Source: Candidatus Thorarchaeota archaeon
GTDB lineage: Archaea > Asgardarchaeota > Thorarchaeia > Thorarchaeales > Thorarchaeaceae
Length of the DNA stretch: 13,702 nucleotides
Assembly: GCA_048882325.1 (NCBI GenBank)
Contig: JBHLRS010000062.1
Span: 1-13,702, forward strand
Direction: 5' to 3'
In this document: positions 1 through 13,426 of the stretch, one piece after another
Numbering within the stretch: the first letter of the stretch is position 1
Layout: each line of letters starts with the position of its first letter
Notes under the pieces: generated by a model
Told to the model about the DNA's origin: nothing
The model's database searches: none
The model's input: the letters and a program-made list of their open reading frames with translations, nothing else
Made by a program: the position numbers and the translations under genes

Positions 1-2144
1 GGATTATCAATATCATACCAACCAGACCCGTCCCAAAATTGGATTAACACTTCTTCACCTGCAAGAGGTGGTGTGCCGCCAAGATATGTTAGTACTCCTT
101 GAATATCAAAAAGGGTTTCATCCACATATAGTTGAGTGGGAGCTGTGATCGCTATCTCGAGATAGTATCTCTGAAGCTGAATCTGTGGTGCGATTGAGCT
201 AAAAGCATTATCATAAATCGGTGTCCAGGAGGTCCAATTCACAAGAACGTCTATAGAACCAGGATTATCCTGAGTCGGTGTGCAGTTGTAGAGCATTTGG
301 TAGTATCCAAATGCATCGGTCTTTTTCTGGAAGACAAATGTCCCAGTTGCATTGACCCAGTGAATATAGACAATCTCAGATGCGATGGGAGTACCATTCG
401 CGAACTGGAGAAAACCATAGAGTAGAACGGTTTCATTAACGTAGTAGGTCCCGAAGTCCTCCTGAATCGATATGAGGGTACCAGTGGCAACAACATCAAG
501 TGGTACAAGTGAGGACTGGCCATCATAGACATTATAGTATGGAGATGAGTAGTTTGCCCAAATGGTGACTGTTTCGGTGGCTTGTCCTATTGGAATTGTG
601 TATTGATGTAGATATCCGCCGGTGGAGTTAGTCATAACGCTTCCAATATAGAAGACTCCAGTGCTATTCTGTAACCAGAAATCTACCCACTGATTTGCCA
701 ATGGTAGTGAGAACTCCGAAAGCGACAGATTACCTTGTATATCGATTGGCTGGAGCAAGAACACAGGATTAGGAGTGACAAAGATTGGATCTAGGGAAAC
801 ATCGAACTTCTTCACGGTTAGGAATCGATGGATTGATTCGCAACTTGCCAGTGTCGGTGAAAGCGACGTGAAGTTTGACCAGTACTCAACCAGACCATCA
901 TCAGAATCCAGAAGTGTATAGTTCAACTCGTAATATCCATCTGGGGCCGTGAGAACAGAACCCAAGTGAATCAAGGACCCATTGTTCCACCAGATATCCA
1001 CCCATTGACCTCCAATACCAGTACCATTAGAAACATGTGTCAAATATCCAAAGATTGTGATATTATAGCCAACATAGTATGGATCAGGCAACCATTGATT
1101 GATTGAGAGCTGGGTACCACTAGAACCAACATTGATTGGGATATAGGTACTCCAGTTCCCCGCAATAAGAGGCCATGGAGAACTCCAGTTGGCATAGGCG
1201 AAGTAGGTTCCATCAGGTTGACTGACTGGTATTGTGTAACTCCAAGTGAACCCGCCAGTAGCGTTCAGGCCGCGTGTTGTGTTTGCCTGCGAGTGAAAGA
1301 ACACACCAACCTGTTGGCCCATAGGCAATACTGTGCCATTAAGGAAATAGACCACCCCATCATAGTCTATTGTTGACCCTGCAGGAACATCGGTTGGAAG
1401 TACTGTGAGATTAAAGCCCACTCTTCCCCATACCTCTGTCGTCGAGTTATCGCCAGAACGAGCCTCATTCAAACGAGGTATACCGTATTGGTCCCAGTCA
1501 CCCAAGTACCAAGACCAGACCTCATGGTCACCAACTGTCATTAAAGCGAGGGCTAAGGGATCCACGTAGATATCAAGCTCGTAGTACCCGTACTCATCAA
1601 TTGAAGCATTGCCCATGAACGTGTTGCCCCAGTAGATACCGATGTTACGATTATCGTATTTTGAACTATTGACAGGGACTCCTCCTACCTTCATTGTACC
1701 ATAGACATGGATAGTGTCCTCCCAGAATGCAAAATGAGTATCCACACCCTGACTCACATTGAGCTGCCTGGTTTCGCTCAGGACAAACCCATCAACTCCA
1801 GATGGGGGTGAGGGAGATGAGTCAGGATTAGGTGTTCCCACCGCAAAGATGGCAGTGCGGTTTGTAATAGAGAAATTGGCAGCAGTCCACGTTGCCGCAA
1901 TGATGTGATAATCCACAGTCGCATTTGATGGAAAGACGTAGGTCACATTGGCTATTGGTTTGTCTGGTGATTGGCCTATAGTTTGAACGCCAATGAACTC
2001 GGTGTCGGTTTCGTCATAGAAAGTGATGGTTTCAGGAGTTGTGACTGGAACACCATCGACAGTGATGTTCGCACTCAGCATGAAGGGAGTTCCAATCTGT
2101 TCCCAGGGTTGTCCATTAGATGGCCAGACGTTAAGCTGAACATT
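1..2144 (-). repeat. At least 7 degenerate protein-level Ig-like/beta-sandwich repeats (~100-110 aa each) within the surface protein
   Basis: Recurring pattern P..Y/F(V)G..I.I.G.L....G.P/G.....V.I.W.N......G...T...G.Y...YT.P......G.....AN(W/Y/F)(S/T)S. Approximate units: 2144-1840, 1766-1430, 1420-1125, 1115-812, 806-485, 479-175, 164-<1. A Pro/Ser linker GTPNPDSSPSPPSG lies at ~1795-1840. Not obviously repetitive at DNA level. Confidence 0.7.
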
Positions 2145-3431
2145 GGGTATTGGTGCGTTGGTTGGGACTTCATCGCCGCCCATATCACTAGGTAATGCCA
2201 AAGGAACGACCTGAATCCATTCCCCTTCGGTGGCTCCGGACATTGGTATAAAGACTTCTGACCAGAATGCCATATGTCTGACCTTGAGGGTTCTGTAGGA
2301 ATAGGTGGGATCAGCCTCTCCAACCGCATATCCCAAGGTCAATCGAGCTGGAATACCAAGTCCACGCATGAAGACACAGTAGGCAGTGGCAAAGTCCATC
2401 GGGAGTCCACCACCACGCTCTAGGAACCAGTCAGTGACCTCTTGACCAGCCGGTGGTCTCTCGAGGGAAGTGTAGGTGAGGTTGAACGTGGTCTGGAAGT
2501 AGAGATTCACAGCCATTGCAGTCTCATAAGCATTGTTCCCAACTCCAATGAACTGTGAGATGTTGTCTTGGACTCGCTGGGTGAGTGGGTCAGGTAAGTC
2601 CAGATAGACATCTGCCCAGCCTGGAGCAGAGGAGCCGGGTTGTGCATTTGCAGCAACATTAGCAAGGTCTTGGGTATCATAGGATAGCTGGAATGTAACG
2701 ATGACCTCCTCTCCAGTGGTTCCCTGAATGAATGGAGTGAAGAGAAGTGTATTGTAGGCGTCAGTTTCTAGATCATAGTCAAGTAGACGACCAGGGTCAG
2801 GGTAAGGATTTCCGTTCCCATCTATACTCCAGGTCACGAATGAGTCCTCAATGACTCTCAGGTCAGGATGAAGTGAAGGAAGCTCGATTGCCCCAACATT
2901 GGCTCCAGCTGTGGCGTTGAAGACAACTGTATAGATCTCGTTGGTTGCCTCACCGGTGGAGATAAGCTGTGTAAGGGCATCTAAAGGAATTGTGCCAATC
3001 TGGGTCTTCCCCCAATGTGCTCCGTCGTATGAATCATACGCCCCCACCCGCCATAGTTGCGGCGGGTCCGCTGGCGCTACTGTAAAGATGATGTTGTCCA
3101 GCTGGTCTAGTATGTCATCCGGTAGCTGTTGGTCGAGAGGGACATCTGTGTAATTGACATTGTCAAACCAGTTTGTCCTTCCTCCTGCAAACTGGTTATC
3201 ATAGGGCCAATATGGGATGTACTCGTACGGAAAATGAGGACTATAATCACGATTTGCCCCCCATTGAACAATCGCAAAATTATAGGTTGCCCAAACGAGA
3301 CTGGCGACTATGAAGATTGAGCTGATGAGGGTAGTAAGACCCATTCTTCTGCGGGAAGTTCTTGTTGCGGCGCTCACTGGACTAATCCTCTTATTCACCA
3401 TTTGGGAGATTTGGCGTGTCGTATAACTCAT
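1..3431 (-). CDS. Large membrane-anchored surface glycoprotein: N-terminal TM helix, TgpA/DUF3488-like segment, degenerate transglutaminase-like domain, tandem Ig-like repeats (3' end outside the window)
   Basis: Absent from the ORF track. Manual translation shows no stop from ATG 3431 (upstream in-frame TAA at 3444-3446) to base 1, i.e. 1143 codons; alternative starts are ATG 3401 and GTG 3398/3377. N-terminus MSYTTRQISQMVNKRISPVSAATRTSRRR, then hydrophobic MGLTTLISSIFIVASLVWATYNFAIVQW. It has LWRVGAYDSYDGAHW (TgpA-type WR...YD.YDG..W), DWFLERGGGLPMDFATAYCVFMRGLGIPARLTLGY...AFWSEVFI...EWIQVVP (transglutaminase core pattern), and then beta-rich ~100-110 aa repeats. Confidence 0.9.
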   Translation of the reverse strand, partial: MSYTTRQISQMVNKRISPVSAATRTSRRRMGLTTLISSIFIVASLVWATYNFAIVQWGANRDYSPHFPYEYIPYWPYDNQFAGGRTNWFDNVNYTDVPLDQQLPDDILDQLDNIIFTVAPADPPQLWRVGAYDSYDGAHWGKTQIGTIPLDALTQLISTGEATNEIYTVVFNATAGANVGAIELPSLHPDLRVIEDSFVTWSIDGNGNPYPDPGRLLDYDLETDAYNTLLFTPFIQGTTGEEVIVTFQLSYDTQDLANVAANAQPGSSAPGWADVYLDLPDPLTQRVQDNISQFIGVGNNAYETAMAVNLYFQTTFNLTYTSLERPPAGQEVTDWFLERGGGLPMDFATAYCVFMRGLGIPARLTLGYAVGEADPTYSYRTLKVRHMAFWSEVFIPMSGATEGEWIQVVPLALPSDMGGDEVPTNAPIPNVQLNVWPSNGQPWEQIGTPFMLSANITVDGVPVTTPETITFYDETDTEFIGVQTIGQSPDKPIANVTYVFPSNATVDYHIIAATWTAANFSITNRTAIFAVGTPNPDSSPSPPSGVDGFVLSETRQLNVSQGVDTHFAFWEDTIHVYGTMKVGGVPVNSSKYDNRNIGIYWGNTFMGNASIDEYGYYELDIYVDPLALALMTVGDHEVWSWYLGDWDQYGIPRLNEARSGDNSTTEVWGRVGFNLTVLPTDVPAGSTIDYDGVVYFLNGTVLPMGQQVGVFFHSQANTTRGLNATGGFTWSYTIPVSQPDGTYFAYANWSSPWPLIAGNWSTYIPINVGSSGTQLSINQWLPDPYYVGYNITIFGYLTHVSNGTGIGGQWVDIWWNNGSLIHLGSVLTAPDGYYELNYTLLDSDDGLVEYWSNFTSLSPTLASCESIHRFLTVKKFDVSLDPIFVTPNPVFLLQPIDIQGNLSLSEFSLPLANQWVDFWLQNSTGVFYIGSVMTNSTGGYLHQYTIPIGQATETVTIWANYSSPYYNVYDGQSSLVPLDVVATGTLISIQEDFGTYYVNETVLLYGFLQFANGTPIASEIVYIHWVNATGTFVFQKKTDAFGYYQMLYNCTPTQDNPGSIDVLVNWTSWTPIYDNAFSSIAPQIQLQRYYLEIAITAPTQLYVDETLFDIQGVLTYLGGTPPLAGEEVLIQFWDGSGWYDIDN

Positions 3432-3597: not shown

Positions 3598-4182
3598 GTG
3601 GAGTTAGGTCATCGGTTGATTGAGGAATTTGTCAGAGAAAGTCTGGAGGAGAACAGCAAAGGAGCGCATACCTTTGACCATACAAAGAGAGTCTATGCTT
3701 TGTCAATGAAGATTGGGGAGGATGCAGGTGCGAATCTGAAGACACTTGGTGCTGCAGCACTCTTACATGACGTCGCTAGACCAATGGAGAGAGAAGCAGG
3801 GATTTCTCACTCCATTCTGTCAGGGGAGATGAGCAGGAGGGTATTGGATAAAGCTGGTTATGACTCTGAAGAAATTGCGAGCGTGATAGATACAATCAGG
3901 ACTCACAGATTCAGTGAAGGACTTGAGCCCAACTCACTTGAAGGAAAAATACTGAGTGATGTGGATAAGCTTGATGCCATGGGAGCTATTGGGGTGTTCC
4001 GAGCCATTGCTCAGGCTGAAAGCACAGGAGTAGGAATCAAAGGTTTCCTCGACCATGCTGATGAGAAACTACTACGCCTGAAAGACCTCATTTATACAGA
4101 GGGGGCTTTAGCAATTGCGGAGGAGCGCCATAGGACACTCGAGGCTTTTGTGTTACAACTAAGAGATGAGCTGCATTCATAG
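3598..4182 (+). CDS. HD-domain metal-dependent phosphohydrolase (YpgQ/YedJ-like)
   Basis: Motifs AHTFDHTKRV, AALLHDV, THRFS and SDVDKLDAMGAIG give the H..HD..D metal ligands. GTG start with GAGGT SD at 3586-3590. Confidence 0.9.
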   Translation: MELGHRLIEEFVRESLEENSKGAHTFDHTKRVYALSMKIGEDAGANLKTLGAAALLHDVARPMEREAGISHSILSGEMSRRVLDKAGYDSEEIASVIDTIRTHRFSEGLEPNSLEGKILSDVDKLDAMGAIGVFRAIAQAESTGVGIKGFLDHADEKLLRLKDLIYTEGALAIAEERHRTLEAFVLQLRDELHS

Positions 4183-4188
4183 TTTGCA

Positions 4189-4779
4189 TCATTTCCGGCT
4201 CAAGTATAACTCTAGATACGAATCACGGACCATATTATTTGAATCAATTCCAAGTTCATTCAGTATTTTGAAAATAAGCGACTTAGCAGATTCCATCTCA
4301 TCCTTTTTGTGAACAATGGACTCAAGTTCCAGAAATTGTCCAACTTGTTCTACGTCATCAACACTGATTGTGATATCACGGAGATCAAAGAATATCCTTT
4401 TCTTCGTGACAACTGCAACGGGTTTGAAATCAAGACTCTGTAAGATAGATGATACTGCATCAGTTTTATCGATTCCAACAGAGTATTCCAGACGGGTTTT
4501 GGTCTTCTTGTCTACCTTCGGACCTTTGTAGGTCAACTCATTTTGAGACCGTGTGGTATCTAATTCTTGGTCATCGAGAGGTCTTCTTGTCCGCACTCTA
4601 ATTGCTTCGTCAGTTTCCTGAAAAGATCGACAGGGATGATCATAGTAAGTGTCAATCTGAATCTCGCTGTTCAACATTTCAGCCCCGATATCAAGAAGTC
4701 TCTGTTTCATCTCTTCAGAATCCGTGATTATGGCCTTGACCTCAACCTCATATGACTCGGACACGATAATCATCCTCAA
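4189..4779 (-). CDS. cyaB: CYTH / triphosphate tunnel metalloenzyme, CyaB (class IV adenylate cyclase)-like
   Basis: N-terminal ExExK (YEVEVKA), QIDTYY, AIRVR, LTYKGPK, KTRLEY, VTKKR, DDVEQVGQFLELE and C-terminal SYLEL. The start is uncertain (TTG 4779, ATG 4773 or GTG 4764). The real activity may be triphosphatase rather than cyclase. Confidence 0.88.
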   Translation of the reverse strand: MRMIIVSESYEVEVKAIITDSEEMKQRLLDIGAEMLNSEIQIDTYYDHPCRSFQETDEAIRVRTRRPLDDQELDTTRSQNELTYKGPKVDKKTKTRLEYSVGIDKTDAVSSILQSLDFKPVAVVTKKRIFFDLRDITISVDDVEQVGQFLELESIVHKKDEMESAKSLIFKILNELGIDSNNMVRDSYLELYLSRK

Positions 4780-4854
4780 GAGATACCCTGAGTTTCAGGT
4801 TGTTAGGTGTTTCCATCCATAACCCAAATAACGGCGATGTATCAACCCTGAAGG

Positions 4855-6120
4855 GTGGGTGTCACTGTGACTAGTATCAAGACCATCAAATGTGCGAAAT
4901 GTGGCAAAGAGTATGACGAGTCCTCAGTACCTCCTAATGATGGATGTGGGGGAAGAATAGACTTTGAGTTTGATCTAGAGATAATCAAAGAAACAATAAC
5001 CAGAGAGAGTCTTGAAAGAAGAACCCCTGGACTCTGGAAGTACTTCGAACTGATGCCTTTGAGGGACCGCAGGAACATTGTGACATTGGGAGAAGGCGGA
5101 ACACCACTGGTTGACAGCAAGATGTTTGCTGATGCATGGAAACTGAAGAACCTCTCATTGAAGATTGAAACAGTGAATCCTTCGGGATCCTTCAAAGACC
5201 GGCCAATCTGTGTGGGAGTAAGCAGAGCTCTGGAAGATGGTGCAAAAACAGTTTCAGCAGCATCATCAGGAAATGCAGCAGCCTCAATGTCTACATTTGC
5301 AGCACGGGCAGGACTCCAGGCAGTTGTCTTTGTACCAGAGGATGCACCTAAGGGTAAATTGATTCACCTTCGGACACTGGGAGCAAAGGTCTTCAGGGTC
5401 AAGAAAGTCAAGGAAGGAATAGATCCTACAACCACTCTTTTACACGCCGCTATTGCAGAGTTTGGTTGGACGCCTACACCGTCATTCGGGCCATTCAACT
5501 GCTTCCAGTTCGAGGGTACCAAGTCAATGGGCTATGAAATAGCTGAACAGACCCAATGGGATCCACCAGACTGGATTCTTTTTCCAACCGGCAGTGGTGG
5601 ATTGATGGCGGGTACAATGAAGGGCTTCTGGGAGTTCAGAGAGATGGGACTGATTGGCAAGATACCGAGACCTGTGGTAGTGCAGCCAGAGGGCTGTGCG
5701 CCAATAGTAAGGGCATTTAAAGAGGGACAAGACCCCCTAGATATCATTCCTTGGGACTCCAATGAAACCGTAGCGGGTGGTCTTGCAGATCCATTTCCAT
5801 GGGATGGTGATGCAGCCCTCAAGTATCTCAAGCTAGCAAAGGGTGAGGTGGTTGCAGTACCAGACGACGAGATTGAGAAAGCATTAGTTCTTCTTGGCAA
5901 ACTAGAAGGAGTATTCGCTGAACCAAGTGGAGTCGCAGCCATGGCAGGACTCAAGGCCCTAGTGGACCAGGGTACAATAGACAGATCTGACAGGATTGTA
6001 GTGCCAATAACTGGCTCAGGATTCAAGGATTTAGATACCCCAGATAGGCTGACAACAGAGGTGCAGTTGATACCTCCAGACACGGCAGAACTCAAGAAGG
6101 CACTCGAGAGTTACGATTGA
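4855..6120 (+). CDS. Threonine synthase-like fold-type II PLP enzyme with N-terminal Zn-ribbon-like segment
   Basis: TLGEGGTPL, NPSGSFKDR (Schiff-base Lys at 5194-5196), ASSGNA, PTGSGG, EGVFAEPSG, ITGSGFKD; N-terminal CAKC...GCGG. Residues for the substrate phosphate look altered (see findings), so the thrC symbol is withheld. Confidence 0.85.
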   Translation: MGVTVTSIKTIKCAKCGKEYDESSVPPNDGCGGRIDFEFDLEIIKETITRESLERRTPGLWKYFELMPLRDRRNIVTLGEGGTPLVDSKMFADAWKLKNLSLKIETVNPSGSFKDRPICVGVSRALEDGAKTVSAASSGNAAASMSTFAARAGLQAVVFVPEDAPKGKLIHLRTLGAKVFRVKKVKEGIDPTTTLLHAAIAEFGWTPTPSFGPFNCFQFEGTKSMGYEIAEQTQWDPPDWILFPTGSGGLMAGTMKGFWEFREMGLIGKIPRPVVVQPEGCAPIVRAFKEGQDPLDIIPWDSNETVAGGLADPFPWDGDAALKYLKLAKGEVVAVPDDEIEKALVLLGKLEGVFAEPSGVAAMAGLKALVDQGTIDRSDRIVVPITGSGFKDLDTPDRLTTEVQLIPPDTAELKKALESYD

Positions 6121-6129
6121 GGTGGTAGC

Positions 6130-6582
6130 ATGGATGAAACAAAGATAAGAGAATACATGGCTGAAGCAATTGCCGAGGCTAAGAAAGGTCTTGCAGCTGG
6201 AGGAATACCAATCGGATCAGTGTTGGTAATAGATGACAAGATTGCAGGTAGAGGGCACAATCAACGGATACAGAAAGGTAGCGCTGTTTTGCATGCTGAA
6301 ATGGATTGTCTTGAGAATGCTGGTAGGTTGACTGCCAAAGACTATCAAAAGTCGGTGCTGTTCTCGACTCTATCACCATGCGACATGTGTAGCGGAGCTG
6401 TCCTACTTTATGGAATTCCTAAGGTCATTGTAGGCGAGAATAAGACCTTCCAAGGTCCTGAGCAGTATGTCAGTGACCGCGGCGTTGATGTCACAGTTCT
6501 CAATGACTCTGAGTGCATCGAGATGATGGAGAAGTTCATTGAGCAAAATCCGACTTTGTGGAACGAGGACATCGGTGAGTGA
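6130..6582 (+). CDS. Zn-dependent cytosine deaminase, Fcy1 (yeast)-type, CDA fold
   Basis: HAE and SPCDMC Zn motifs. GGIPIGS, GRGHN.R.QKGSA.LH, ENAGRL, YGIPKV.VGEN..F and C-terminal W.EDIGE match the yeast Fcy1 pattern as recalled. GAGGTGG SD at 6119-6125. Confidence 0.88.
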   Translation: MDETKIREYMAEAIAEAKKGLAAGGIPIGSVLVIDDKIAGRGHNQRIQKGSAVLHAEMDCLENAGRLTAKDYQKSVLFSTLSPCDMCSGAVLLYGIPKVIVGENKTFQGPEQYVSDRGVDVTVLNDSECIEMMEKFIEQNPTLWNEDIGE

Positions 6583-6604
6583 ATGACACAGCATTATTGG
6601 GGAT

Positions 6605-7591
6605 ATGAAGATGTCAAGTAAGGAACTCCGGCAAAGGGCAAAGGAACTGGCAAAGGAGTACGGATATCTCCAATACATGATTGAACGTTATCTATCGCTT
6701 TGGGGCGAAGAGGACACTCTGAGGTTCATTGAGGCTTGTGAGCAACAAATCAGAACTTCAATTCGAGTGAACACACTGAGATCGTCAGTGGGTGAAGTGA
6801 TTCACAGACTTCAAGGGAAAGGGGTCACACTTGACGAAGTGCCTTGGTTAGAGGAGGGCTTCTATGCTGACTTCAATAGTACTTCTCCAGGTGCCCTACT
6901 TGAACACATGTTGGGATTCTACTACATACAGGGAGTTCCCTCCATGACTGCTGTTTCTGTGCTGAATCCACAGCCAGGAGACATAGTCTTGGATCTGGCT
7001 GCTGCCCCAGGAGGAAAGACAACCCACATCGCTCAGTTAATGCGGAACGAAGGCATGGCCATAGCAATCGAACAGGACAGGCAACGCATGGCTAGTCTTC
7101 AAAGTAACATAATCAGGTGTGGCGCTACGAACACTCTTGTACTCCGTGGAGACGCGAGAAAGCTTGGTAGTATCCCCTTCGAGCCAAATAAGATTCTCCT
7201 AGATGCACCCTGTTCTGGAGAGGGACTCATTCCTCTGGATCCAACGAGAAAGACAAGTAAGACCATGGCTGACATTAGATTTTGCGCAACAAGAGAAGAT
7301 GAGATGCTAGAGGCTGCTGTCAATATCTTAGCCAATGACGGTACTATGGTTTACTCAACTTGCTCCATTGCTCCTGAGGAGAACGAATACATTGTAGATG
7401 ATATTCTAAAACGACATCCTGAGATGAGAGTAATGGAAATCACGACTGAGTTTGGTTCCCCTGGTTATTCTGACCCTTATGGTATCAAACTGAATGAGTC
7501 TTTGAAATTGTCAAGAAGATTTCTGCCTCATCTTCACGGAACTGAGGGGTTCTTCATCTGCAAACTGAAGAAGGAGGACAGCTCAGAATGA
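6605..7591 (+). CDS. RsmB/Nop2/NSUN family RNA cytosine-C5 methyltransferase
   Basis: IRVNTLR, YYIQG, motif I DLAAAPGGKT, motif IV LLDAPCSGEG, motif VI YSTCSIAPEENE and PHLHGTEGFF. Both catalytic cysteines are intact. Confidence 0.93.
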   Translation: MKMSSKELRQRAKELAKEYGYLQYMIERYLSLWGEEDTLRFIEACEQQIRTSIRVNTLRSSVGEVIHRLQGKGVTLDEVPWLEEGFYADFNSTSPGALLEHMLGFYYIQGVPSMTAVSVLNPQPGDIVLDLAAAPGGKTTHIAQLMRNEGMAIAIEQDRQRMASLQSNIIRCGATNTLVLRGDARKLGSIPFEPNKILLDAPCSGEGLIPLDPTRKTSKTMADIRFCATREDEMLEAAVNILANDGTMVYSTCSIAPEENEYIVDDILKRHPEMRVMEITTEFGSPGYSDPYGIKLNESLKLSRRFLPHLHGTEGFFICKLKKEDSSE

Positions 7592-8130
7592 AGATAGAGC
7601 TTGTAGATCCAGTTGATTGGGGCTCTATCATAGAGCAGGTTGACGTCGAGTTTGGAGCAGGAGTGATCAAGATACTTCTTGGAAATCGAGTGCCTGTAGT
7701 GATGGCTAGAGGGAGTACCAGAATCTTCTATGCAATTCCGACAGAGTGGATGTCGAGTCTTATTGAGAACGTGAATTTACTTGATATCCAGTTTATTGGT
7801 AAGGAGCTCGGCTCAATCGAAAAGGGAAGATTCAGACTTAGCTTGCAAATCCTGAGTGAATTGGCTGAAATCACTGATAGTTACTTGATAGTTTCTAGAC
7901 AAGGTGCAGAAGCCTTCACATATGGGAGGAGCATCATCAGAGAGTCTGTGAAGGAATTGAACACATCACTTGTGAGAGGTCAGAGGGTACTTGTGCTAAA
8001 TGAGAAAAGAGAGTGCCTTGGAATAGCAGCGCTCTCTGTAGATGCGGCAAAACTCACTCGACTTGGAGGAGACAGACTGGTTGCTAAGAATCTTGTAGAC
8101 ATAGGTTGGTTCATAAGACGCCTGGGTTAG
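7588..8130 (+). CDS. Nip7-like PUA-domain ribosome biogenesis protein
   Basis: 180 aa with G.ELG..EKGRFRL, AEAFTYGRSI, V.VLNE..ECLG.A and C-terminal NLVDIGWFIRR, typical of archaeal Nip7. ATGA overlap with the methyltransferase stop; AAGGAGG SD at 7571-7577. Confidence 0.78.
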   Translation: MKIELVDPVDWGSIIEQVDVEFGAGVIKILLGNRVPVVMARGSTRIFYAIPTEWMSSLIENVNLLDIQFIGKELGSIEKGRFRLSLQILSELAEITDSYLIVSRQGAEAFTYGRSIIRESVKELNTSLVRGQRVLVLNEKRECLGIAALSVDAAKLTRLGGDRLVAKNLVDIGWFIRRLG

Positions 8131-8873
8131 ACGAACATGTCGCTTGAACGGTCTGAGTCCTCGATTGATTTTCTCATTTTCTCGAGTCGTTCTATCTCAC
8201 GAGACTCCTCCAGAAGTTGCTCCACATTGGCTCCAACTCCATAGATATCATTGATTTTTTCGAGCATTGTTGCTGCGGACCGTGGATCGGGGCGACCTCT
8301 AGTTGCGTATGTGAGAAGGCCGATTGCTGGAGCCCCATGCATCTCAAGCTCAGCCAGGAACAGCGCCAGCGGACCTGCAACAAACAGACCTTCCTCAAGA
8401 AGTGGTACCTTCCATTTTTCAAGCATCTCCTTGTATGCAGTTGTGGGAACACAACGCATTTCCTCTTCATCCTCTTTGAATGATGCATCGAGCCCTCCGA
8501 GAAGCAAGGTCTCTTTGAATTTGTTCTCAGCTACCCAGCTTGCTAGTTTGTCGATGAATCCCCATTGCTCGGACTGGTGTGGTTGAAACCGAGGAACTAG
8601 GAAGATCATCTTCTTCTTTTTGTAGGAATAGAGTTCGAATGGTAAAACAAGACGTTCATTCTCCATAGAAACGAAGAGTGGAAGCATATCACTCTTGATG
8701 AACCCGACGCGATCAGCATCTAGGGTCCGGGTCAAATGTGCAGTGCTCAGAAATCCTACTTCACCTAGACCATGAAATCCACAGATGAAGGTGGATCCGG
8801 GTTCAATCTTGAAGTCCTTCTTCAGGATGATTTTGAAAGATGAATCAGTTGTAGCTACGAAAGCCATGACCAT
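8127..8873 (-). CDS. PAC2-family archaeal proteasome assembly chaperone/activator (PbaA/PbaB-like)
   Basis: ICGFHGLGEVGFL, LPFELY, LLLGGL, GPLALFL, RPDPRSAA, V..L.EE...IE coiled tail and C-terminal MFV (HbYX-like). GAGG SD on the minus strand at 8879-8882. Its stop overlaps the Nip7 stop (8127-8130). Confidence 0.88.
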   Translation of the reverse strand: MVMAFVATTDSSFKIILKKDFKIEPGSTFICGFHGLGEVGFLSTAHLTRTLDADRVGFIKSDMLPLFVSMENERLVLPFELYSYKKKKMIFLVPRFQPHQSEQWGFIDKLASWVAENKFKETLLLGGLDASFKEDEEEMRCVPTTAYKEMLEKWKVPLLEEGLFVAGPLALFLAELEMHGAPAIGLLTYATRGRPDPRSAATMLEKINDIYGVGANVEQLLEESREIERLEKMRKSIEDSDRSSDMFV

Positions 8874-9120: not shown

Positions 9121-11340
9121 TTGATGGAGCGGGATTATTTGAGCACCCTAAGGGAACTAGAACTTCAACAGGTTGCTCCCCGTTTGTTGGAGTTACTCAG
9201 AAGGCAGGGACTTGCCACACTCACTAGATTTCAGTCCGCTTCAGTTCAACAAGGTATTATGAGGGGGATTAGTCAGTTATTAGTGACCTATGACTATAAT
9301 GAGGCATATATGGTAGGTGAGATTGCACTCCTCAACCGTGTTGCTTCTGACCACAGAGCAAGGGCGATAGTACTCTGTCCTCACCCTCACCAAGCGGAGA
9401 GGCGGTTTCGGTCATTAAGTCAGAAATGCAGTCGTTTGGGCATCGAGGCTTCAGAGATTATCCGTAGAAGGACTGCAACCACAGAAGGAGCAGGTTCAGG
9501 TAGAGTGGTTGTTGCAACATATGCATCAATGGATATTGCATCACGTGTAAACCCAGAAATTCTTGATGGTGTGGTCTACGTACTGATTGATCGACTTGAC
9601 CTCATTGGACAGCCACGTATTGGAGCGCGGCTCGAAACAGTTCTTGTGACATTATTAGGTCATGCAGATGTTCAGTATGCAGCAATCTGTCCTCCTCTTG
9701 AAGACATGGACGAATTGGGCACCTGGCTGGATGCAGAGATAGTGGAAGATCCGAAAGCAGATGTGAAACTGATTTTTAGTGTGAAAACCTTTGAGGACTC
9801 GGATGATTCAGTTGCAGATTTGACCGAATTTGTCACACGAAAGCAGGGACAGGTGATGATTCTCTGTTCTAATATTGCAACCTGCGAGGATTTTGCGGTT
9901 CAACTGGCCGGAATTGAAACAGGGAACAAGACCACAGCTGCAAATCTCAGACTGGCTCCTGAATACAGAGATGACCTTAGACATCTCTCACTTGACATAA
10001 AGAAGTGGTATAGCCAATGCGAAAACACAGTAAAGCTTAGCAAGGTAATCACAAAAGGGATCGCTTTCATCCATGAGGGAGTCGGAATGATCCAGAGAAG
10101 GACCATCTCTGAGGCATGGGAGGATGGTCTTCTACCTGTCATTGTGATGCCAACACGCTTTGCTATTGCAAGTGGTCTGAGGGCTACTGTCGTGTTCTTG
10201 ATGGGCGTGTTCATGCAGGAACTCGGCAAGGATGCCTCTCAGGAGGAATCAGTCACTATGTTGTCTGAGTGGCAGCTGAGTGATGTTCTTGAAGCAGCTG
10301 GCAGAAGGGGAATTGACAATGAAGCATTTGGAATCGTTGTGGTAGACAATGCGTCTGAGAGGGGTCGGGTTCTAAGCAAGTATTTCGAAGAGGACCAAAG
10401 AGGAAATCTAAAGGCAAGACTTGGTGAAGTTGACAGCGTAATGGATGAAACTGAGAATGTTCAAGACTTAGTTTTGCGTCAACTGTGTGGAAAATCTGGA
10501 AAAGGTGATGATCCCTTCTCAATCATTGATCGTACATTCTGGGGAAGTAGCAGTCTTGTGACTGACGTCAGACAAGCGGAAAAGCCAGATGAGTCATCAG
10601 TAGAGAAGCTCCTGACACTCCGTTCAACGAGGTCCACATCTTCCAGAGCGCAGGATATACCTGATTCAAGTGTGAAACTCACGACAGTAAGACCTGACAA
10701 GATAGAAGGTCTTGTACACAGCGGGAGCAGGGAGATATGGCACTATACAACACTGAAGGCGAAAGACGGTGTTTCATGTTCATGCGAGTCATGGAAATAT
10801 CAGGGTATACGAAAACACAGACTTTGCAAACATCTTATCAAGTTCGCCCGATTCGCAATGAATGAAGATGATACAAAACCCTATGCAGCAGGAGTGATAA
10901 TGCAGGCACTTCGAGGTCTTGAAGTATTCGGGGAGTTAGAGGCAGACAAGCTCATAATTCGTGATGAGAAAAGCACAAGATGTACGGAATTGGGAAAGGA
11001 TATTGCAGTTCTTGGAGTTCCTGTTAAAGACACCAAGAGAGTGATGAATGCAATCGCTGATGAGAAGAGTGACTTGAAGACAATCCTAAGGAATGTGGTC
11101 CTGACTCAAACAACCATTCCAAAGGATGTTGTGAAGCGTGTCCTGGATAAACTCCCTGCGAAGACCATTGAGGACATAATCTGTGAAGATGACATGCCAG
11201 GAATTGTCGAGAACTGTCTGGAAGAACTGGAATATGTAAACTCAATCCTACTGAAACTCCTCAAATCTAAACATCCAGCAAAGGAGGAGAGTAGGAAGCT
11301 TGGACAGAGTCTTCTTGCTCTTCTTGAGCCCATGAAGTAA
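9121..11340 (+). CDS. Catalytically degenerate Hel308/Ski2-like SF2 helicase with an inserted SWIM zinc finger
   Basis: Collinear with Hel308: Q-motif (GLATLTRFQ), motif Ia (AIVLCP), VVVATY, IDRLDLIG..R.GARLE, ELGTWLDAE, GIAFIHEG...R..I.EAW.DG.L.VIV, AAGRRGID, and the WH signature CTELGK.IA. SWIM motif CSC-x13-CKH at 10777-10833. TTG 9121 or ATG 9124 start. Confidence 0.82.
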   Translation: MMERDYLSTLRELELQQVAPRLLELLRRQGLATLTRFQSASVQQGIMRGISQLLVTYDYNEAYMVGEIALLNRVASDHRARAIVLCPHPHQAERRFRSLSQKCSRLGIEASEIIRRRTATTEGAGSGRVVVATYASMDIASRVNPEILDGVVYVLIDRLDLIGQPRIGARLETVLVTLLGHADVQYAAICPPLEDMDELGTWLDAEIVEDPKADVKLIFSVKTFEDSDDSVADLTEFVTRKQGQVMILCSNIATCEDFAVQLAGIETGNKTTAANLRLAPEYRDDLRHLSLDIKKWYSQCENTVKLSKVITKGIAFIHEGVGMIQRRTISEAWEDGLLPVIVMPTRFAIASGLRATVVFLMGVFMQELGKDASQEESVTMLSEWQLSDVLEAAGRRGIDNEAFGIVVVDNASERGRVLSKYFEEDQRGNLKARLGEVDSVMDETENVQDLVLRQLCGKSGKGDDPFSIIDRTFWGSSSLVTDVRQAEKPDESSVEKLLTLRSTRSTSSRAQDIPDSSVKLTTVRPDKIEGLVHSGSREIWHYTTLKAKDGVSCSCESWKYQGIRKHRLCKHLIKFARFAMNEDDTKPYAAGVIMQALRGLEVFGELEADKLIIRDEKSTRCTELGKDIAVLGVPVKDTKRVMNAIADEKSDLKTILRNVVLTQTTIPKDVVKRVLDKLPAKTIEDIICEDDMPGIVENCLEELEYVNSILLKLLKSKHPAKEESRKLGQSLLALLEPMK

Positions 11341-11410: not shown

Positions 11411-12556
11411 ATGAAGTTGTTTGAACATGAGGCTAAGGACATCTTCCGAGCCTTCAAGATGCCAACGCCTACAGGCGGTGTCGCTCGAACGCCAAAAGAG
11501 GCGAAAGAACGTGCTGCCGAGGTTGGAAAGCCTGTTGTCGTAAAGGCGATGGTTCTTGCGGGTAAACGGGGAAAGGCTGGAGGTGTGAAGTTCGCAGACA
11601 CCCCACAGGATGCAGAGAAGCGTGCTGAAGAGATTCTGAGAATGCGTATCAATGACTTGCCAGTTGAAGCGGTCTTAATTGAGGAAAAACTGGACATTCA
11701 ACAGGAGATCTATGCTGGAATCACCATTGACAGGAATGAACGCAAGTATGTCATAATCGGTAGTGCGGCTGGAGGAATGTCAATCGAAGAGCTCGCAGAG
11801 GAGAGTCCTGAAAAAATCATCAAAATGCATGTAGACCCCGGACTAGGTTTTCAGCCGTTTGAAGCTAGACAGATGGCTATTGCCATGGGTTTCAAGGGCA
11901 AGCAAATCAATCAGCTTGGAAGCTTCTTCCTGAGATTGTGGGAGATTGTCGAAACTTATGATGTAGAACTCACTGAGATTAACCCACTTATTCTTACGAA
12001 GGATGGTAGGTTCTTTGCTGCTGATGCTAGATTGAATATCGATGATAACTCACTATTCAGACACAAAGCAATCATCGAGCGGCTCAAACGTGAACCTGTC
12101 GAACAGAATGAGCGGGAGAGATTGGCCTCAGAGAACGATATGGCATATGTTGAACTAGAAGGAAATATCGCTTGCATCTGTAATGGTGCAGGACTTACTA
12201 TGGCGACCCTTGATGCTGTGTCACTCTACGGCGGCGAGGCGAGTACATTCCTTGATTTAGGAGGAGGAGCAGATGCAGAGCGGGTTGAGAAGGGCATTGA
12301 GATAGCGCTCATGTATCCCAATGTAAAGGCAATCTTGGTCAACATAATGGGAGGCATCACAAGATGCGATGAGGTGGCTAAGGGCATATTAGCAGCGAGA
12401 AAAGACGGAGATATCACTGCACCGATGGTGATTCGCATGGTTGGAACCAACGAGGAAGAAGGCCAAGCCATCCTGAATAAAGCAGGGATACCATTTTTGA
12501 AGACGATGGAAGAAGCTGCCTCGAAAGTGGTCGAGCTCGTGAAGGAGGTTACTTAG
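11411..12556 (+). CDS. sucC: Succinyl-CoA synthetase (NDP-forming) beta subunit
   Basis: MKLFEHEAK, GKRGKAGGVK, SAAGGMSIEE, EINPL, DDNSLFRH, NGAGLTMATLD, FLDLGGGA, NIMGGITRCDEVA and R..GTNEEEG. GGTGG SD at 11399-11403. Confidence 0.96.
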   Translation: MKLFEHEAKDIFRAFKMPTPTGGVARTPKEAKERAAEVGKPVVVKAMVLAGKRGKAGGVKFADTPQDAEKRAEEILRMRINDLPVEAVLIEEKLDIQQEIYAGITIDRNERKYVIIGSAAGGMSIEELAEESPEKIIKMHVDPGLGFQPFEARQMAIAMGFKGKQINQLGSFFLRLWEIVETYDVELTEINPLILTKDGRFFAADARLNIDDNSLFRHKAIIERLKREPVEQNERERLASENDMAYVELEGNIACICNGAGLTMATLDAVSLYGGEASTFLDLGGGADAERVEKGIEIALMYPNVKAILVNIMGGITRCDEVAKGILAARKDGDITAPMVIRMVGTNEEEGQAILNKAGIPFLKTMEEAASKVVELVKEVT

Positions 12557-13426
12557 ATGGCAGTTCTAGTTGACAAAGACACTAAGGTCATTGTTCAAGG
12601 AATCACTGGAGGACAGGGAACGTTTCACTCCGCAGCGATGTTAGAGTATGGCACCAAGATTGTTGCTGGAGTGACTCCTGGAAAATCTGGACAAGAGGTC
12701 AACGGAGTTCCTGTCTTTGATAGTGTGATTGACGCAAAAGAGGACACAGGAGCAAATGCTTCAATCATCTTTGTTCCAGCACCGTTTGCAGGCGACGCGG
12801 CTCTTGAAGCGATTGCTGCGGATCTTAATCCGGTGGTTCTAATTACAGAGCATGTTCCCGTAAAGGATGAAATTAAACTGATTCACGCTGCAAAAGCGAA
12901 GGGAATTACGGTTATTGGGCCAAACACACCCGGAGTCATCACACCCGGGGTAAAGCAGAAAGTTGGCATAATGCCTGGACATGTCTTCTCACATGGCGAA
13001 GTAGGACTCATGTCCCGAAGTGGTACACTGACCTATGAGATCGCAGCAGGAATGACTAATGCAGGTATTGGAATATCCACAGCCATAGGTCTCGGAGGAG
13101 ACCCGTGTGTTGGACTCACTACAATTGAGGCTGTTAGACTCTTCAAAGGAGACAAAGACACCAAGGCATTGGTCTTAGTGGGTGAGATTGGCGGCGATGC
13201 AGAGGAACGTGCTGCAGTCTATATCAAGAAAGAGTATGACCTTCCAGTCGTCGGATTCATCGCTGGGAGGACTGCGCCACCTGGAAAACGTATGGGACAT
13301 GCTGGAGCAATCATCAGTGGAAGTTCAGGAACTGCAGCTGCAAAGGTCAAAGCACTCAATGATGCAGGAGTTGCAGTGGCGGAGAAACCAAGTGATGTTG
13401 CTAGGCTCCTTAAGGAAGCAATGTAA
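12557..13426 (+). CDS. sucD: Succinyl-CoA synthetase alpha subunit
   Basis: VIVQGITG, GVTPGK, IGPNTPG, SRSGTLTYE, GEIGG and APPGKRMGHAGA (phospho-His). AGGAGGT SD at 12543-12549; abuts the sucC stop. Confidence 0.97.
   Translation: MAVLVDKDTKVIVQGITGGQGTFHSAAMLEYGTKIVAGVTPGKSGQEVNGVPVFDSVIDAKEDTGANASIIFVPAPFAGDAALEAIAADLNPVVLITEHVPVKDEIKLIHAAKAKGITVIGPNTPGVITPGVKQKVGIMPGHVFSHGEVGLMSRSGTLTYEIAAGMTNAGIGISTAIGLGGDPCVGLTTIEAVRLFKGDKDTKALVLVGEIGGDAEERAAVYIKKEYDLPVVGFIAGRTAPPGKRMGHAGAIISGSSGTAAAKVKALNDAGVAVAEKPSDVARLLKEAM

Follow-up and report, generated by a model that had tools for sequence, protein, structure and literature searches.

A Hel308-related protein with replaced ATPase motifs is maintained under purifying selection in one family of Thorarchaeia

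What keeps a helicase-like gene in place when the motifs of its ATPase have been replaced? The question is raised by contig JBHLRS010000062.1 (13,702 nucleotides [nt]; assembly GCA_048882325.1) of a Candidatus Thorarchaeota archaeon, the full length of which is the window analyzed here and which belongs to a genome of 3.6 Mb that is 93% complete. According to the list of open reading frames (ORFs) and their translation, the window carries at 9139..11340 on the + strand, stop codon (11338-11340) included, a gene for a Hel308-like protein of 733 amino acids (aa), hereafter called the pseudo-helicase. Public records label it a "hypothetical protein," annotation pipelines also use "replicative superfamily II helicase," and its nearest public homologues are labeled Thorarchaeota in almost all cases. 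The original prediction described an intact frame of 739 codons under a span of 9121-10330. The frame is indeed open, with no stop from 9121 (ATG at 9124) to 11340, but the span given covers only the two RecA-like domains, and the gene runs on to 11340. Residues are numbered below along the 739-codon frame.

Residues 16-437 match the NCBIfam Hel308 models (HMMER, E about 5e-23), and the protein aligns by HMMER with the solved structures of Hjm (2zj2, E 4.5e-18) and Sso Hel308 (2va8, E 6.8e-14). Agreement at this level far exceeds what chance would give. Exactly opposite PTASGKT, DEIH, SAT, TPTLSAGIN, and QMLGRAGR of Hjm/Hel308, the alignment places replaced strings, and the coordinates and motif strings first proposed for them were all correct by translation and by this alignment. 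The former Walker A (motif I; 9286..9309, on the + strand like all the features of the gene) reads TYDYNEAY at aa 56-63 for xPTxSGKT; it is devoid of the Gly-rich loop, the Lys, and the Thr, and the string that took its place is in turn conserved, as (Y/H)DYxEAY. The former Walker B (motif II; 9589..9600) reads DRLD at aa 157-160 for DExH, its catalytic Glu having become a conserved Arg158 and its His Asp160. The former motif III (9688..9696) reads CPP at aa 190-192 for SAT, with A>P191 and T>P192; the former motif V (10150..10176) reads PTRFAIASG at aa 344-352 for T(P/T)TLAAG(I/V)N; and the former motif VI (10282..10305) reads DVLEAAGR at aa 388-395 for QxxGRAGR, so that of its Gln and two Arg only the second Arg, R395, is retained. 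The flanking elements Q38, RLE, ELxxWL, GxAFxHxG, and AGRxGxD are also retained.

The comparison of 38 members of the pseudo-helicase clade with 99 active relatives, at the 87 positions where conservation among the active proteins is 80% or higher, separates the sites into three classes. Unchanged positions (35/87) include Q38, P87, A92, T133, R142, G168, L171, E172, and W202 and, further along the protein, G313, H318, G320, R326, A393-R395, D399, T622, G625, and G694. Another 25 positions have switched to a different conserved residue, among them G>E61, K>A62, T>Y63, E>R158, H>D160, A>P191, T>P192, T>P344, T>R346, and N>G352; most of the replacements in the ATPase motifs have become fixed in the clade, the first three of this list among them. 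The remaining 27 are relaxed and include the Gln and the first Arg of motif VI. That the loss of the motifs should be shared by orthologues was checked in those extracted from 34 genomes, and the motifs are degenerate in all 34.

In superfamily 2 (SF2) helicases, ATP binding and hydrolysis, and hence translocation, depend on the very residues that are replaced here. Because the Gly-rich loop, the Lys/Thr pair, the catalytic Glu, and motif III are all gone, the pseudo-helicase is predicted neither to bind nor to hydrolyze ATP and, consequently, neither to translocate along nor to unwind nucleic acids. In their place, aromatic, acidic, and basic residues have become fixed, a pattern unlike drift that suggests a structural role for the old nucleotide cleft. 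Alternatively, the protein could still be an enzyme that hydrolyzes nucleoside triphosphates or catalyzes another reaction at a remodeled, noncanonical site, as might be argued from the strong conservation of the remodeled cleft residues and from the survival of the Q-motif Gln38 and of Arg395. However, the elements just listed as lost are those without which, to our knowledge, no SF2 enzyme is known to work, and we consider this alternative very improbable.

The distribution of the gene was examined in 87 genomes of Thorarchaeia, made up of the genome studied here, 85 further members of its family, and one genome from a sister family. An orthologue is present in about 82 of the 85 genomes and in all 16 genera of the family, and the best matches have E values of <1e-200 and 45 to 83% identity to the query; three metagenome-assembled genomes (MAGs; 65 to 92% complete) contain no orthologue, and a few contain fragments only. 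The single sister-family genome carries an active paralogue only and no pseudo-helicase. Among the 34 extracted orthologues, the lowest pairwise identity is 41%, while 12% of the alignment columns show no variation and 32% reach 90% conservation or more. When 15-residue windows are ranked by conservation, two windows of the inserted zinc-finger module described below come first (aa 550-564, score 0.95; aa 527-541, 0.92), followed by aa 346-360 (RFAIASGLRATVVFL), which overlap the former motif V and are among the most conserved of the clade (0.90), and by the former motif VI and an N-terminal helix (0.88 each); the windows of the ratchet helix, the former Walker A, and the former Walker B all score 0.84.

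The ratio of nonsynonymous to synonymous substitution rates (dN/dS), which had been expected to lie below 1, is 0.05 to 0.09 for the closest pairs according to the Nei-Gojobori method, an approximate figure since the dS of the pairs used (0.9 to 2) is near saturation. By domain, the median dN/dS is 0.074 for RecA1, 0.068 for RecA2, 0.034 for the zinc-finger module, and 0.061 for the C-terminal part. The pseudo-helicase is thus kept under strong purifying selection and is not decaying. A pseudogene in decay, or a frame open by chance, would fit the loss of all catalytic motifs and a public label that says no more than "hypothetical protein." Its probability is practically nil, and we rejected it: a frame of 733 to 739 codons is intact in dozens of genomes and 16 genera, the sequence is conserved among orthologues at the dN/dS given above, and the predicted fold is confident. 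Since it is maintained by selection across the family, the pseudo-helicase would therefore serve a purpose for which no motor is required.

That the protein has the Hel308/Ski2 fold, as originally claimed, was supported by structure prediction followed by Foldseek. The AlphaFold2 (AF2) model, built from a 68-row alignment, has a mean predicted local distance difference test (pLDDT) score of 85.6 and a predicted template modeling (pTM) score of 0.85. Its top match in the PDB is Hjm 2zj5 (E 6.8e-26, TMq 0.67, TMt 0.72), followed by Hel308 2va8, 2p6r, and 9b15 and then by the Pol theta helicase domain and Brr2. The model shows that the full-length Hel308 shape is predicted to be kept, with RecA1, RecA2, a split winged helix, and a ratchet domain. 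As delimited by the HMMER alignment and the model, the RecA1-like domain (9148..9750, aa 10-210) keeps the Q-motif Gln38, Pro87 of motif Ia, and Thr133 of motif Ib, and the RecA2-like domain (9766..10425, aa 216-435) largely keeps motif IVa, GxAFxHEG...R326. The RecA2 hairpin between the former motifs V and VI retains its fold, and its tip is variable and of low confidence. Placed by the model and an alignment of Hel308 relatives, the N-terminal part of the winged helix and its linker (10450..10653, aa 444-511) include a low-confidence loop at aa 478-487; the C-terminal part and the ratchet domain, similarly placed, occupy 10876..11337 (aa 586-739). The wing spans aa 612-621 and is followed by the family-wide TxxG at aa 622-625 (T622/G625). 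In the ratchet helix (aa 693-713, nt 11197-11259), G694 is kept, and the Trp of the family is replaced with a conserved Tyr705.

The helix-hairpin-helix (HhH) domain 5 of Hel308 is absent: the alignment ends at the ratchet, at a point where Hjm runs about 90 residues further, and no HHH Pfam match was found in the pseudo-helicase, although three of its relatives do have one. The model ends with two helices, aa 693-713 and aa 720-738, and neither it nor the Pfam search contains an HhH or fibronectin type III (FN3) part. The pseudo-helicase therefore resembles archaeal Hel308/Hjm (2zj2/2zj5, 2va8, 2p6r; NF040935) in its RecA1-RecA2-winged helix-ratchet fold and in the order of its motifs, and these proteins are its best matches in both sequence and structure, whereas it differs from them in the replacement of every ATPase and coupling motif, in its inserted module, and in the absence of domain 5. 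Its score against the NF040935 equivalog model is 81.2 bits, below the cutoff of 1200, with only profile positions 9-428 of 704 covered.

The module that splits the winged helix (10672..10863, aa 518-581) consists in the AF2 model of four strands and two helices, with C553, C555, C569, and H571 (nt 10777-10833) as putative zinc ligands. The Pfam SWIM family PF04434 matches it in the pseudo-helicase with 16.6 bits and an E value of 0.0056, under the gathering threshold of 19.6, and matches 6 of 19 family members at E values of up to 0.01, the best being 2e-6. Across 26 modules, the four ligands of the CxC-x(n)-CxH pattern are the only invariant columns. Folded alone, the module reaches a pLDDT of 93.3. 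An exhaustive VIA search of 48,161 solved chains gave ZSWIM8 (9rwz_M) as its best structural match (Z 6.8, root mean square deviation [rmsd] 3.1, 79 aa) and Shu2 (6dex_B) as the second (Z 4.3, rmsd 3.3, 78 aa), and the unrelated chains ranked beneath them had Z values of 4.1 or lower. When the isolated module was compared with the PDB by Foldseek, no match had an E value of 0.001 or lower, and the highest TM-score was that of ZSWIM8. By fold and putative ligands, the inserted module is thus modeled as a SWIM zinc finger. No other part of the pseudo-helicase is conserved as strongly as this module, whose isoelectric point (pI) is 9.4, compared to 4.4 to 6.0 for the other domains.

The pseudo-helicase has two relatives in the same genome. 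A separate canonical Hel308, the presence of which had been set as a check, was found with intact motifs (PTSSGKT, DEIH, SAT, and QMAGRAGR) and matches the full profile with 604 bits. The other is an active SWIM-Hel308 paralogue of 732 aa (L049:5690-7888), which has the same architecture as the pseudo-helicase and intact motifs. The two SWIM-bearing proteins share 21 to 23% identity, only the four zinc ligands are invariant between their SWIM modules, and their genes lie far apart, the pseudo-helicase on contig C62 (the window) and the active paralogue on contig C11. A full scan of 1.8 billion representatives revealed many further SWIM-bearing Hel308-like proteins; where a source is named, the members sampled come from Loki (including the cultured Promethearchaeum syntrophicum), Heimdall, Odin, Hod, Hermod, Baldr, Jord, and Thor archaea. 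Like the 840-aa P. syntrophicum protein (P0171) and the active paralogue, the pseudo-helicase carries the CxC-x(n)-CxH module between the first helices of the winged helix and the wing, and most of these proteins have lost domain 5 as well; as a group, they are monophyletic with it, and the active members differ from it in keeping PSGSGKT, DEIH, SAT, and QILGRAGR.

In a full-length maximum likelihood tree, the SWIM-bearing proteins are split from canonical Hel308 with a Shimodaira-Hasegawa-like approximate likelihood ratio test (SH-aLRT) support of 99, a value also obtained in a tree of the C-terminal half. The pseudo-helicase nests within the SWIM-bearing clade, and an origin as a duplicate of canonical Hel308 was ruled out on that basis. 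Of the proposal that it is a maintained, ATPase-dead Hel308 paralogue, the dead motifs and the selection have thus held up, but the protein is a member of a SWIM-bearing family mostly without domain 5 and not a copy of canonical Hel308. We conclude that it is an ATPase-dead descendant of a SWIM-bearing, Hel308-like family that has so far been seen only in Asgard archaea.

The stem of the dead clade measures 2.3 substitutions per site in the maximum likelihood tree, and the clade groups with five Hod, "Ran," and Odin proteins with a support of 97 over the full length and of 91 in a tree of the winged helix, SWIM module, and ratchet, from which the eroded RecA domains were excluded. Long-branch attraction could contribute to this grouping, given that the Hod form shares about 35% identity with active members and 24% with the Thor protein. 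The five relatives (Hod P0131, "Ran" P0134, and Odin P0135, P0140, and P0150) share 19 to 24% identity with the Thor protein, as well as the SWIM signature CxCExW(K/R)(F/Y)...CKH, and are partly eroded: in most, Walker A persists as GKT or GKS, and degeneration affects motifs II, III, V, and VI. Only in P0150 (Odinarchaeia, 593 aa) does Walker A also appear to be lost, reading CTPMSCWE, with DYLH for DExH; from its motifs, this protein may have lost the ATP site completely in a second, independent event.

Canonical Hel308 and its relatives yielded two further observations. The canonical gene (L001:1459-3735, equivalent to G000:C9, + strand) lies directly 3' of an MCM gene and has no in-frame ATG, GTG, or TTG ahead of Walker A; the frame suggests a rare start codon, e.g., the ATT at L001:1504, with GGAGAGG a few bases upstream. 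Three canonical Hel308 relatives (P0195, P0201, and P0268) contain insertions of about 130 to 160 residues exactly within motif V or VI, which end in ...HNC or ...HNS and look like inteins.

Proteins that have the shape of a motor but no engine are well known in eukaryotes, the second cassette of Brr2 and Utp25 being examples. The C-terminal cassette of Brr2, to which the pseudo-helicase had initially been compared, is likewise an inactive yet retained unit of the Ski2/Hel308 fold, but the analogy turned out to be loose: that cassette keeps its nucleotide pocket and is fused to an active one (PMC8220420), whereas in the pseudo-helicase the P-loop is gone and the protein is encoded by a stand-alone ORF, between the genes for a PAC2-family protein and sucC, with no tandem active cassette. 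Brr2 also carries a Sec63 unit (PMC10946056); the pseudo-helicase has no HhH/FN3 unit. Utp25, a component of the yeast small-subunit (SSU) processome, resembles the pseudo-helicase as an SF2 look-alike that stands alone, has no catalytic motifs, and acts in assembly (PMC9539457); it differs in being DEAD-box-like rather than Ski2/Hel308-like, in belonging to another domain of life and another pathway, and in having no SWIM module. Shu2/SWS1 and ZSWIM8 share with the pseudo-helicase the fold of the module and the CxC...CxH ligands, although their host proteins are unrelated. Shu2/SWS1 proteins bind RAD51 paralogues and have the extended motif CxC...CxHxxA (PMC6316741). This extension is unmatched in the pseudo-helicase, where CKHLIKFA places the Ala five residues past the His instead of three.

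The original prediction knew of no described stand-alone archaeal example, and our full-text literature searches likewise turned up no account of a Hel308 relative that bears a SWIM module or has dead motifs. In the text of a 2024 survey of archaeal Ski2-like helicases, which included 27 Thorarchaeota genomes, a term search returned no mention of SWIM and no motif-dead form (PMC10946056). A stand-alone Hel308-derived pseudo-helicase in archaea thus appears to be undescribed, as does the SWIM-bearing Asgard family.

As for its function, we consider it fairly probable that the pseudo-helicase is a turnover-free binding adaptor with a role in recombination or repair, in which the SWIM module would be the main docking element and the remodeled cleft would fix the RecA lobes. 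Without an ATP site, the protein would work as a rigid, ATP-independent binding module. Its former cleft is predicted to be filled and stapled by YDYxEAY, Arg158, Asp160, and Arg395/396, and would thereby keep both RecA lobes in a single state. Part of the scaffold that contacts nucleic acids appears to survive, i.e., motifs Ia, Ib, and IVa, the TxxG of the winged helix, the Gly of the ratchet, and an aromatic residue, and the basic, highly conserved SWIM module would dock a partner protein or a nucleic acid.

The assignment to DNA recombination or repair would follow from ancestry and from the location of the active paralogue in an operon with genes for an XPD-like helicase, FEN1, and two RadA-family proteins. 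This operon is a long, co-oriented row of minus-strand genes (L049:681-13735, equivalent to G000:C11:88680-101734) that encodes, besides the paralogue, the XPD-like helicase (652 aa), proteins of 781, 546, and 321 aa without assignment, FEN1 (330 aa), a KaiC/AAA-type protein with an intact GSGKT (244 aa), and a Rad51-family protein with a degenerate Walker A (239 aa). It ties the parent SWIM-Hel308 family to recombination or repair.

Several observations weigh against an adaptor of this kind. The whole protein is mildly acidic, with a clade median pI of 5.9 versus 8.35 for the active SWIM relatives; the tip of the hairpin is not conserved; and domain 5, which is implicated in annealing by Hel308/HELQ, is absent. 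The neighborhood of the gene was rejected as a functional clue, the adjacency of PAC2 and sucCD being family-wide synteny, and the genes that flank the Hod and Odin relatives are metabolic and unrelated. The approximate nature of the dN/dS estimates should be counted here as well. Charge was in turn rejected as a clue to DNA binding, since the active SWIM paralogue of this genome has a pI of 5.5 and charge thus does not discriminate.

A second function to be weighed is that of a stand-alone clamp or annealing factor, which would grip single-stranded DNA or RNA through the ring of RecA domains, winged helix, and ratchet, with neither turnover nor an obligate partner. The contact residues P87, T133, R142, G313, H318, G320, R326, T622, G625, and G694 and the aromatic residue at position 705 are kept, as is the Phe of motif IVa, which is conserved in the pseudo-helicase clade as the putative equivalent of a Phe that controls annealing in Hel308/HELQ, according to a 2026 review (PMC13623763). 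ATP-independent annealing is known for HELQ and Hel308, and ATPase-null HELQ still anneals naked DNA, a precedent for motor-free activity in this fold (PMC13623763). However, motif V has been rewritten, as has motif IV in part, the protein has no domain 5, and because it is acidic and its hairpin tip not conserved, the reading as a DNA clamp is weakened; we judge it distinctly unlikely.

The pseudo-helicase might instead act in trans on an active helicase, pairing with the active SWIM-Hel308 or with canonical Hel308, or competing with them for partners, and so tune their activity. Both co-occur with the dead copy in nearly every genome that has it, the two SWIM paralogues have a common architecture, and the inactive Ski2-like cassette of Brr2 can regulate the active one (PMC8220420). 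The low identity between the paralogues, whose SWIM modules have only the zinc ligands as invariant positions in common, and the distance between their genes on separate contigs do not favor such pairing, and this possibility, while conceivable, seems unlikely.

A narrower version of the adaptor, in which a motorless recombination mediator offers a Hel308-shaped platform and its SWIM module serves as the docking site for paralogues of the RadA family or for a different repair factor, is something of a long shot. The prediction of a complex between aa 7-739 of the pseudo-helicase and the ATPase core of this genome's canonical RadA (aa 105-352), run without controls, scored 0.00 against a mark of 0.32; it counts neither for nor against such an interaction. 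If there were such a mediator, it would correspond in archaea, functionally and perhaps also by ancestry, to the way in which RAD51 paralogues pair with SWIM proteins (Shu2/SWS1) or HELQ in eukaryotes, and the Hod, Odin, and Thor proteins would form a stepwise series of conversion from helicase to adaptor in the lineage closest to eukaryotes.

Whatever its exact role, the pseudo-helicase is notable for being near universal in one Asgard family and under strong purifying selection, with sister forms that are apparently at intermediate stages of motif loss. Together, these proteins constitute a natural series in which the change from a helicase to a noncatalytic adaptor can be studied, and they offer a handle on accessory factors of recombination and repair in the archaeal group closest to eukaryotes. 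In genome inventories, the pseudo-helicase should not be counted as an active helicase.

The start of the gene was assigned by comparison with 20 orthologues of the same genus, which all start at the position equivalent to 9139 (TTG in 19/20, GTG in 1/20), several of them with in-frame stops immediately 5' of it. On these grounds, the true start is probably the TTG at 9139, giving the product of 733 aa. More distant genera appear to start the gene with ATG rather than TTG or GTG. The TTG start may be a sign of deliberately low translation.

Immediately upstream, a divergent gene for a PAC2-family protein (Pfam PF09754) is located at 8127..8873 on the - strand, and downstream, the beta and alpha subunits of succinyl-CoA synthetase (sucC and sucD, assigned by Pfam) are encoded at 11411..13426 in the same orientation as the pseudo-helicase. 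The order RsmB/F, PUA, PAC2 (divergent), pseudo-helicase, sucC, sucD is kept in 14 distant genomes. A longer block, from a CYTH gene to past sucD, is also syntenic, with a transglutaminase-like gene in place wherever the available stretch reached it. In the window, positions 3598-8130 hold HD, CYTH, PALP, deaminase, RsmB/F, and PUA genes, whose order up to sucCD is kept in at least 14 genomes of different genera; the stability of the block from HD to sucCD is unusual for MAG-derived archaeal genomes. The - strand of positions 3-3431 encodes a protein of more than 1,143 aa, which the original prediction had flagged separately as a candidate pseudo-transglutaminase surface protein; it is open at the edge of the window, with a match to the Pfam transglutaminase core (E 2.6e-12).

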